From Escherichia phage ECO103 4-12-1: a DNA stretch of 64,000 nucleotides. The DNA is taken from the sequence record OR844650; one strand, 5' to 3'. The first letter of the stretch is position 1. Each line of letters begins with the position of its first letter. The position numbers and the translations under genes are program-made. Below the pieces are notes generated by a model. It was given only the letters and a program-made list of their open reading frames with translations, was not told where the DNA came from and ran no database searches. Of the stretch, positions 34,483-36,440 are shown in pieces.

Positions 34483-35035
34483 AACTCAATATCTCCATTA
34501 AGCACTCATAAACACCATCAATCGCATAAGCACAAAAATTGAAATTAATTTTGTGATTCTTGTGTAATGGACTATTGTGTACTGTACTCATTATGACATT
34601 ATAAAATAACAAACGCACTGGTACAAGCATTGAACCTTGGAAAAATTCTTCCTCTGATTTATATGTATTGTACTCTATTGTTTTGTTCGTTTCTTTATTA
34701 TATGTTACCATTACTAATGGGGAATTTTTATTATACCATGCGTACTCTAAATCATTCTTTCCAATAACAGCCCCAGGGGCAAAATCCAAAAGACCAATAA
34801 CACTACGGGCATTTGGGTTATCAGGTGTATTGAATCGTTTATCAAAATGACTCGTGCACGTAATATATGTATTGTACTTCGATGGAATAATACCAATACA
34901 TTTGTGGATGTGACGCTTGTAATCTTTCTGTGCATTATATAAGGCTGCAACAATACAAGCTAACTTTTGTCCCATAAGGATTGCATTAGCGTAGGTGTAC
35001 TGAATATCATTGCTGGTACGGTACTTCGAGGTCAT
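34469..35035 (-). CDS. family A paralog
   Basis: ORF 188 aa; motif EEEFFQGSMLV. Confidence 0.6.
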   Translation of the reverse strand: MTSKYRTSNDIQYTYANAILMGQKLACIVAALYNAQKDYKRHIHKCIGIIPSKYNTYITCTSHFDKRFNTPDNPNARSVIGLLDFAPGAVIGKNDLEYAWYNKNSPLVMVTYNKETNKTIEYNTYKSEEEFFQGSMLVPVRLLFYNVIMSTVHNSPLHKNHKINFNFCAYAIDGVYECLMEILSYEAE

Positions 35036-35318
35036 AATATTTCCTTTGCCATATCATGGGCTTAAAATCAATAACAGCTTTCTGTATCTTTTTTAATAAT
35101 AAGACATCATAACCACCCGTGTCAATCACTAATTGCTGTTGGAACAATTCTTCATCGGATAATGTATTGAAATCTACAAAATAATCTGTAACTATCGAAT
35201 CATTTAAATGTGCCATGTACCAACCTGAACTTCTTGAATAAATCAAATTCCACCCATCGTCATCATCTTCTAATTCAACATAAATCATATCTGGGGTATA
35301 CATCATTTTATACTTCAT
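35007..35318 (-). CDS. family A paralog
   Basis: ORF 103 aa; motif DEELFQQQLVI. Confidence 0.6.
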   Translation of the reverse strand: MKYKMMYTPDMIYVELEDDDDGWNLIYSRSSGWYMAHLNDSIVTDYFVDFNTLSDEELFQQQLVIDTGGYDVLLLKKIQKAVIDFKPMIWQRKYYDLEVPYQQ

Positions 35319-35814
35319 AACTATATCCTTGCATCAAAATATCATAAACGTTTGAAAGGTACGGAATTTTGATATAAAATTTAAAACCCTTAATTAAAGG
35401 ATTCGCGTACAATGAACTGAATAACTTTAGATAATGTATTTGACGAGGACTGTATAATAACGATTTCTGAAATAATTCAGAACTACAATCTGAACTAATA
35501 TCAATTAAATCAATTCGTGCTTCTACTTCATCATTTTGTTTCAAATCATAAAAGAAATAATCGTTTGTGTTGACCCACAAATACCCTTCACTATTTTCGT
35601 ATATAACAGGAGATGCTTGTTCTGGATTGCCTTGGGCAAATGCTGCAAAACAAACTTTTGCATTACTTTCATCTTTAAACAAAAACGATAATTTATCATA
35701 TCTATCTTCTATGCGTAAATCACCTATATAAATGTACTTATGCATAGAATGATTATTCTTGAGCATAAGCATTACTGTACTAATCTTGTGTGCTAATAAT
35801 TCTATCTCATTCAT
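35308..35814 (-). CDS. family A paralog (recent duplicate of 35886..36440)
   Basis: ORF 168 aa; MNEIELLAHKIST...; motif SSELFQKSLLY; C-terminus QGYSYEV. Confidence 0.6.
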   Translation of the reverse strand: MNEIELLAHKISTVMLMLKNNHSMHKYIYIGDLRIEDRYDKLSFLFKDESNAKVCFAAFAQGNPEQASPVIYENSEGYLWVNTNDYFFYDLKQNDEVEARIDLIDISSDCSSELFQKSLLYSPRQIHYLKLFSSLYANPLIKGFKFYIKIPYLSNVYDILMQGYSYEV

Positions 35815-35850
35815 ATATTATTACCTATTGATGGATGCATCATCTTCTAA

Positions 35851-35883
35851 TTCAACATAAATCATATCTTGGGGTATACATCA
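35851..35883 (-). pseudogene. frameshifted 5' remnant of a 35007..35318-like gene
   Basis: 35837-35916 near-identical to 35268-35346 with 1-nt insertion; reads MMYTPRYDLC then stop versus intact MKYKMMYTPDMIYVELE. Confidence 0.5.
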
Positions 35884-35885
35884 TT

Positions 35886-36440
35886 TTATACTTCATAACT
35901 ATATCCTTGCATTAATAAATCATAAACTACATGGACTAAATTTAATTGAATATAAAATTTTAAACCTTTAATTAATGGATTCAAATGCATTGTACTGAAT
36001 AAAATTAGATACATCATCTCATGCGGTTTTGTGATTAATGATTTTTGAAATACTTCAGCTTCATCATAAGGGTCTATGAACTGAAATTTGTCTTCATCAT
36101 AATTTGTATTGGAATGCTGATATATAAAATAATCATCATTGGTATTGTACCACAAATACCCTTCGAATCCTGTACTTACATTTCTTGTCAATGGTGATGC
36201 TGATACTGGATTTGAACTGATTAATGCACCTACACCAACAATCCCCGTTGTATCATATTCGATTTCAACATCAATGTCAATATCAATGTATTTCCTTGCG
36301 ATATCTGCGTTTATGGACAAATATAAACTACCACCTGTCCTCTGACTCAGGATTCCATCTATCTGCGATATAGGATGGTTGTTATTGAGGATAAGCATTA
36401 TTGTACTTATCTTGTGTGCTAATAACTCTATCTCATTCAT
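35886..36440 (-). CDS. family A paralog (recent duplicate of 35308..35814)
   Basis: ORF 184 aa; MNEIELLAHKIST...; motif EAEVFQKSLIT; C-terminus QGYSYEV. Confidence 0.6.
   Translation of the reverse strand: MNEIELLAHKISTIMLILNNNHPISQIDGILSQRTGGSLYLSINADIARKYIDIDIDVEIEYDTTGIVGVGALISSNPVSASPLTRNVSTGFEGYLWYNTNDDYFIYQHSNTNYDEDKFQFIDPYDEAEVFQKSLITKPHEMMYLILFSTMHLNPLIKGLKFYIQLNLVHVVYDLLMQGYSYEV

Follow-up and report, generated by a model that had tools for sequence, protein, structure and literature searches.

The subject of this analysis is a pair of neighbouring paralogous genes, A and B, on the minus strand of a 64,000-nt stretch of DNA from Escherichia phage ECO103 4-12-1 (sequence record OR844650; hereafter the window). 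The two genes are separated by C', a truncated copy of the start of the following gene C, and by a short spacer whose first part, D', copies the end of the preceding gene D. The locus is probably a stacked pair of two old and divergent alleles of a single Asteriusvirus accessory gene (family phrog_19795), brought into tandem through unequal recombination, and the cassette C'-D'-A has been exchanged between haplotypes at a linker that spans a gene boundary. An earlier account, made from the sequence alone, had seen in the same pair a recent segmental duplication within an array that grows by duplication and decays by small indels.

The window belongs to an Asteriusvirus, that is, a PBECO4/121Q-like jumbo phage of Escherichia coli. 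Over the segment 34400-37200 it shares 99.4% identity with Escherichia phage BF17, and the 32 records that this segment matches are all Asteriusvirus-type jumbo phages of E. coli or Salmonella, among them PBECO4, 121Q and slurp01. With about 30-34% G+C, the region is AT-rich, and it is densely filled with short minus-strand open reading frames (ORFs). Read along the coding strand, it carries D, B, C' (59 nt), a 23-nt spacer, A, C and E in succession. The locus consists of two head-to-tail units, each made of the tail of D, an A/B-type gene and the head of C (unit 1, 35261-35837; unit 2, 35838-36460), which are collinear over their whole length.

Two divergent genes that behave as alleles of one locus

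The proteins encoded by A (168 aa) and B (184 aa) are 43% identical, with 40 gap positions. In a codon alignment, DNA identity is 89% over the first 22 codons and 92% over the last 13 codons, for 54% in the core. The two units show the same profile, with 90-100% identity towards either end, 37-60% in between and a 41-nt indel. The sequence-only reading had pointed to identical termini in the two products and these were indeed found, MNEIELLAHKIST being the common N-terminal and LMQGYSYEV the common C-terminal sequence. The core divergence is near saturation. Since the ends are alike and the cores share about 54% of their nucleotides, the whole unit was not copied recently, and the claim of a recent segmental duplication has to be given up, the more so as A and B are each found singly in other phages.

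Among related phages, B alone lies directly upstream of C in 17 genomes, including PBECO4, UB, 121Q, CRJP21, UE-S1, ph0011, Ecwhy_1 and Salmonella SD phages. A alone was observed in phage A4 and in 7 metagenome or assembly contigs, while 12 phage genomes carry both genes in the order B, scar, A. The B of the window is 97% identical to the single copy of PBECO4, and its A is 79% identical to the copy of A4. As A and B each occur singly at the same locus, they behave as alternative alleles, and their sequences suggest that they are old alternatives at one locus that were placed in tandem.

The conserved 3' block of these genes is dual-coding, in that it encodes LMQGYSYEV and also holds the AAGGA ribosome-binding site and the ATG of C. 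The start of C (35318) overlaps the last 11 nt of A, and the ATG of C' likewise overlaps the last 11 nt of B. This double duty would explain part of the conservation of the block.

In the A-only genomes, an unrelated ORF, X, sits between D and A. It encodes 116-122 aa with a signal-peptide-like N-terminus (MFNKIMFILTFVFLSFINTAHTAQA...) and a variable AVQ repeat, and lies at 2387-2737 of extract L013 (phage A4) and at about 2626-2994 of extracts L019-L025; the window holds no matching gene.

Gene B itself shows some variation. At about 36270-36290, in the region encoding IDIDIDVEIE, a short DI/DV-coding repeat carries a 6-nt indel polymorphism that separates the window, BF17, JP4, TH47 and PBECO4 from slurp01, ELP-22 and UB, and cuts across the divide between one-copy and two-copy phages. 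B is also annotated as 144 aa from a downstream start in the records of PBECO4 (1409-1843 of extract L001) and BF17 (1999-2433 of extract L002). The full 184-aa ORF is intact in both, 97-99% identical to B of the window, and the shorter form looks like an annotation inconsistency and not a biological difference.

The repeat, the remnant and the two haplotype groups

The cassette C'-D'-A is flanked by two copies of a linker, R1 and R2 (90 and 89 nt, 95.6% identical), whereas B-only phages hold a single copy at the B/C boundary. Pairwise alignment of the two copies gave 85 matches out of 89 and one 1-nt indel. The near-identity of these segments had been recognized from the letters alone, and it holds; the ranges then proposed (35268-35346 and 35837-35916) were mutually offset by about 8 nt, both within the true repeat. 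Two sub-blocks are exact, one of 32 nt (35261-35292 = 35838-35869) and the other of 31 nt (35304-35334 = 35882-35912). Each occurs exactly twice in the window, for 0.00 expected from 100 dinucleotide-preserving shuffles.

Once its inserted base is removed, C' is identical to the head of C (35261-35318) at 58 of 58 positions. The insertion was located as an extra T on the plus strand at 35869/35870, which turns CCCCAGAT into CCCCAAGAT on the coding strand. The remnant ORF that results (35896..35852, minus strand) reads MKYKMMYTPRYDLC followed by a stop and counts 14 codons. The idea of a head-to-tail duplication scar stands as well, as a 59-nt copy of the head of C lies behind B and is joined to a copy of the D tail, itself followed by the paralog A. 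Such a structure would be expected if a unit made of D tail, gene and C head were present twice.

The 5' part of the spacer copies the 3' end of D, and the 3' part is the leader found ahead of A in A-only phages. The join between C' and D' was present in all 13 other two-copy assemblies inspected, which fall into two groups; these are haplotypes at the A/B locus only and not phage clades. Group 1 comprises the window, BF17, JP4, slurp01, ELP-22, TH47, one contig in an E. coli assembly and two metagenome scaffolds. It is characterized by a B1-type B and by the additional base in C', seen in the window and 8 assemblies and in this group only. Private changes in C' and the spacer were also observed in group 1, namely a 12-nt tandem duplication in BF17 and one substitution each in JP4 and ELP-22.

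Group 2 comprises WPEC3, fEgEco12, vB_Ec-M-J, Turkey3 and CMSTMSU, and probably also WPEC5 and EC.P1. It carries a B2-type B with 54% protein identity to B of the window and keeps 6 more nt of the C head. Its C' has an intact frame of 26 codons (MKYKMLYTKDMIYVELEDNDDVSINR, then a stop), which ends 8 nt before the ATG of A. The first 17 nt of the group-2 spacer match the D tail of UE-S1 at 17/17 positions, and the last 17 nt, through the ATG of A, match the X-A leader of A4 at 17/17. In the window, the first base of the spacer departs from this form, with C in place of T. A UE-S1-like D parent would allow for a 3-nt microhomology, ATG, at the join.

Group 2 thus keeps the frame of a C' that is already truncated, and the +1 frameshift is accordingly a secondary, lineage-specific lesion. 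C' was non-functional from the start, made a pseudogene by its truncation and not by the 1-nt insertion. Among six closely related group-1 genomes, a small sample, the 71-nt spacer has taken a 12-nt tandem insertion besides 2 substitutions; no change is seen in the 58 nt of the C head and one in 496 nt of A. The notion of a decaying remnant is consistent with this pattern, the spacer being variable and the real C head invariant; the frameshift as the killing lesion is not, as the breakpoint had cut the gene to about 20 codons. By sequence, C' has the features of a pseudogene or gene remnant, a truncated homolog of the functional C under relaxed constraint. A search of the remnant spacer for a promoter or terminator that might account for its retention found none.

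The segment 50000-56000 of the window was considered as a yardstick for divergence between the groups and rejected, as it is highly mosaic (3-10 alignment pieces per genome) and ranks the relatives differently. It also has short 88-92% matches in unrelated coliphages of about 147 kb (muut, ALITA, PHB05; query positions 1545-2322), and in some records it adjoins annotated direct terminal repeats.

Gene C varies in number too. Two tandem C-type genes, about 52-60% identical to C of the window, are found in WPEC3 (2143-2792 of extract L011), fEgEco12 (1096-1754 of L012) and Ecwhy_1 (1099-1757 of L015), for one in the window. They represent a further copy-number polymorphism at the A/B locus.

Age of the scar and movement of the cassette

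The group-2 C' is 94% identical to the C head of the A4 type, 89% to that of the PBECO4 type and only 75% to the C resident in the same haplotypes. Had a neutral fragment the age of the A/B split, after which the cores retain 54% identity, it could not have stayed matched at 58 of 58 positions or at 94%, which argues that the scar is much younger than that split. The low identity to the resident C indicates in turn that the fragment was not homogenised against its neighbour. With a young scar, an ancient duplication in place loses ground to an unequal join of pre-existing alleles, or to a duplication after which one copy was replaced through the conserved ends.

The comparison of the window with WPEC3 opposes a conserved block to diverged flanks. 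From about 35307 to about 35900, one unit running from R2 to R1, the two sequences are 91-100% identical; in C the identity drops to 53-78%, and B and D reach 40-78%. The core of A is 98-98.5% identical across groups and that of B 73.6%. Since the block from scar to A is conserved, its flanks are diverged and its edges fall on the linker, the cassette seems to move by homologous recombination. Mosaic breakpoints at the linker were found in CRJP21, which combines 121Q-like D and B with a PBECO4-like C, and in TH47, which combines a 121Q-like D with window-like B, A and C. Taken together, the alignments indicate that C'-D'-A has been exchanged by recombination between diverged haplotypes, with breakpoints at the gene-boundary linker. 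By analogy with T4-type phages (see below), the cassette may be gained and lost through homologous recombination in which the linker is the substrate (R1xR2-type). The junction, common to groups 1 and 2, appears to be of single origin.

Nucleotide diversity among the six group-1 genomes is 0.0007 for A, 0.0022 for C, 0.009 for the spacer and 0.017 for B, so that A is about 25x less diverse than B. With such a low diversity of A, the arrival of the cassette in the group-1 lineage would seem to be recent. Single-copy B genes (PBECO4, UB) nest among the two-copy ones; for instance, slurp01 and UB differ by 2 substitutions, and the window and JP4 by 15.

Origin of the tandem arrangement

The explanation favoured here starts with one unequal recombination at the level of microhomology, which would have fused the ~60 nt at the start of C with the terminal ~15-20 nt of D and produced the order D-B-C'-D'-A-C. 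Two routes would fit the present sequences: out-of-register recombination of a B-type with an A-type genome, or a tandem duplication in which the other allele later replaced one copy through the conserved gene ends. C' is a neutral scar that was damaged later in a lineage-specific manner. The cassette C'-D'-A is bracketed by two linker copies of about 90 nt, each made of the 3' end of A/B, with the ribosome-binding site and start of C, and of the C head.

Several observations weigh against this scenario. The simple parent D-A-C is absent from the genomes examined and X stands between D and A in all A-only genomes, so that at least one extra step is needed. The junctions of groups 1 and 2 differ by 6 nt and one substitution; this difference can be attributed to slippage in a GATGAYGATG run, and two independent events at nearly the same site would be a formal alternative. 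In single lineages, the change may have been a gain or a loss of the cassette. Finally, the very low diversity of A could come in part from purifying selection and not from recent spread.

The strongest competitor is an ancient tandem duplication in place, in which gene conversion and dual-coding selection would have kept the ends and C' alike and B-only and A-only phages would stem from reciprocal losses. Old duplications did occur here, as the older paralog E is only two genes distant and the 13-39 kb stretch is a 36-member paralog array, and selection can account in part for the conservation of the 3' end, which houses the ribosome-binding site and start of C. Such a history nevertheless looks improbable in view of a group-2 C' that resembles a foreign A4-type C (94%) more than the resident one (75%) and has neither been homogenised nor decayed like the cores. 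It also fits poorly with a block from scar to A conserved between haplotypes whose B has diverged, and with the ~25x lower diversity of A in group 1.

Far less credible is the original proposal of a recent duplication of one gene unit within the genome, with copies that diverged and a leftover start inactivated by a 1-nt insertion. The near-identity of R1 and R2 and the perfect match of C' to C apart from the inserted base speak for it, and the low diversity of A in group 1 fits a recent arrival of the cassette there. Against it, A and B are about 54% identical in their cores, with large indels, each allele exists separately in other phages, and the remnant is truncated regardless of the frameshift, which group 2 does not have. 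In addition, the junction is not private to this genome but is found in 13 other assemblies from many countries, and the +1 base is shared by many genomes. An assembly artefact by spurious repeat expansion, for which only a general caution over tandem repeats can be invoked, has next to no probability, as an assembler would not confuse units differing at about half of their core positions and the same architecture recurs in 13 other independently assembled genomes and scaffolds, 8 of them with the extra base; this recurrence argues decisively that the structure is real. Stacking of two old alleles by unequal recombination is thus retained as the preferred explanation.

Features of the locus and its gene family

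The coordinates of the features are given in Table 1.

Table 1. Features of the A/B locus, in positions of the window
Feature	Position	Strand	Description
Gene B, upstream paralog	35886..36440	-	184 aa; phrog_19795; 'B1' allele type
C', truncated frameshifted copy of first 58 nt of C	35838..35896	-	59 nt including extra base at 35869/35870
D' and A leader, 23-nt spacer	35815..35837	-	coding strand CATCCATCAATAGGTAATAATAT, then ATG of A
Novel junction, C head to D tail	35837..35838		coding strand GAAGATGATG joined to CATCCATCAATAGG
Gene A, downstream paralog	35308..35814	-	168 aa; phrog_19795; 'A' allele type
Gene C, intact	35007..35318	-	103 aa; phrog_33987; first 58 nt are the source of the remnant
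Repeat R2	35261..35349		last ~40 nt of A (with AAGGA ribosome-binding site of C) and C head
Repeat R1	35838..35927		same linker between B and C'; 95.6% identity with R2
Conserved 5' block of A	35744..35820		first ~22 codons and leader; 87% identical to 36370-36446 at B start
Conserved 5' block of B and D tail	36370..36460		coding strand TATCCATCGATAGG; right-hand end of unit 2
Gene D	36437..36640	-	67 aa; last codons are the source of D' upstream of A
Gene E	34469..35035	-	188 aa; phrog_19795

A PHROG profile search assigned A, B and E to phrog_19795, a family of unknown function, with E-values of 1.7e-32, 5e-93 and 1.7e-82, respectively. These are full-length matches, residues 1-168 of A, 1-184 of B and 15-187 of E covering profile positions 1-179 of 179. 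Homologs of phrog_19795 were found solely in Asteriusvirus-like sequences, in 31 clusters among 5.8 billion proteins, where they sort into groups of A, B and E type. Searches of Pfam, NCBIfam and PADLOC gave no match for A, B or C; sub-threshold lines concerned only other proteins or lay far under the cut-off (GldN, E=0.019; LIC10362_fam, E=0.069). Likewise, the phrog_19795 profile had no match at E<=1 against PDB sequences and no significant fold match. A and B are probably alternative host-interaction genes.

At this locus, E is a third paralog of A and B, and an older one. The possibility that A/B with C form a duplicate of an older pair made of E and gene 34141..34482 was considered and rejected, as C and gene 34141..34482 are not detectably related (E=0.55).

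The surroundings are rich in paralogs. Single-linkage clustering of phmmer hits (E<1e-3) yielded two large clusters, one at 13089-38906 with 36 genes of about 100-200 aa, including A, B, C and E, and the other at 23583-44897 with 29 genes of about 70-90 aa that are near-contiguous over 38.9-44.9 kb. About 30 ORFs at 9.6-41 kb carry the motif (E/D)E-x-FQ-x-SLV. Moreover, five successive paralogs of 147-164 aa, all with EEYYFQ, lie at 25546-27870 with a spacing of 437-484 nt; their DNA is 65-78% identical over 145-261 nt, which makes them a better candidate than the A/B pair for true tandem amplification in place. In published accounts of Asteriusvirus or Rak2-like phages, paralog arrays were found only as a brief mention, that of 22 paralogous ORFs in phage CBB (PMC5259590).

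Significance of the locus

The locus offers a clean and datable record of how variable gene arrays change in jumbo phages. One illegitimate join would have made the tandem pair, and homologous recombination at conserved gene boundaries would then have moved the extra gene from one lineage to another and can remove it again. Judged from its sequence, the scar amounts to proof of a duplication-type rearrangement with a decaying leftover fragment. Neighbouring phage paralogs need not reflect copying in place, as in this case two old population alleles appear to have been stacked. The practical value is modest: the C'/D' junction, with or without the extra base, could be a marker for recombination among Asteriusviruses in phage therapy studies.

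A bolder and rather doubtful proposal is that the dual-coding linker, made of the last ~13 codons of A/B and of the ribosome-binding site, start and first ~20 codons of the next gene, is a portable recombination site. The single-gene cassette C'-D'-A (578 bp) would then pass between co-infecting jumbo phages by excision as a mini-circle and re-insertion. Should this be the case, accessory-gene alleles could be stacked or swapped without a dedicated enzyme, and the same route may generally remodel the 36-gene and 29-gene paralog arrays of Asteriusvirus.

Comparison with known systems

Tandem duplication by unequal crossing-over that leaves a truncated remnant of a flanking gene is a general mechanism, by which for example multigene families of large DNA viruses expand and contract. 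The A/B locus shares with it the head-to-tail units, a novel end-to-start junction, a neighbour partly copied as a pseudogene and the setting in a large paralog array. It differs in that the units are not recent copies but existing divergent alleles with conserved ends only; variation was stacked and no single gene was amplified.

The locus is a clear but ordinary case of modular shuffling in a phage hyperplastic region. In the hyperplastic regions of T4-type phages, such shuffling is mediated by PeSL elements, which combine an early promoter and a stem-loop (Arbiol et al. 2010, PMC2839356; Comeau et al. 2014, PMC4122927). Flanking repeats of this kind, of about 100 nt, bring about the deletion or insertion of single ORFs, with mini-circles as possible intermediates (PMC2839356). 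As in T4, the accessory ORF is present in some close relatives and absent in others, and it is bracketed by two conserved copies of about 90-100 nt where the empty site holds one. Recombination between the flanking copies would delete the ORF, possibly as a small circle, and the reverse reaction would insert it.

Some features are nevertheless distinct. The T4 PeSL is intergenic and consists of a sigma70-like early promoter and a stem-loop terminator, whereas the linker described here is a coding gene boundary, of which one copy arose by the duplication that truncated C; in this sense, the portable linker considered above would be a coding counterpart of the T4 elements. Promoter-like sites at the locus do not exceed the shuffled expectation (16 for 21 expected in 34400-37200) and terminator-like sites are 0.

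Elsewhere in the window, at least 21 copies of a conserved intergenic promoter-hairpin cassette of 46-100 nt lie at 45800-63830, each before a small gene (for example 46686-46731, 47661-47706, 48192-48288, 56325-56421 and 60803-60899). On the minus strand, this cassette consists of TTGCAA or TTGACA, a 17-nt spacer, (TG)TATAAT, a G+C-rich hairpin (for example GGGGAGAA-ATGA-TTCTCCCC), AGGAG and ATG. With their sigma70-like promoter and stem-loop, the cassettes of the 45.8-63.8 kb region resemble the T4-type PeSL, while the paralog arrays at 13-45 kb contain none of them.

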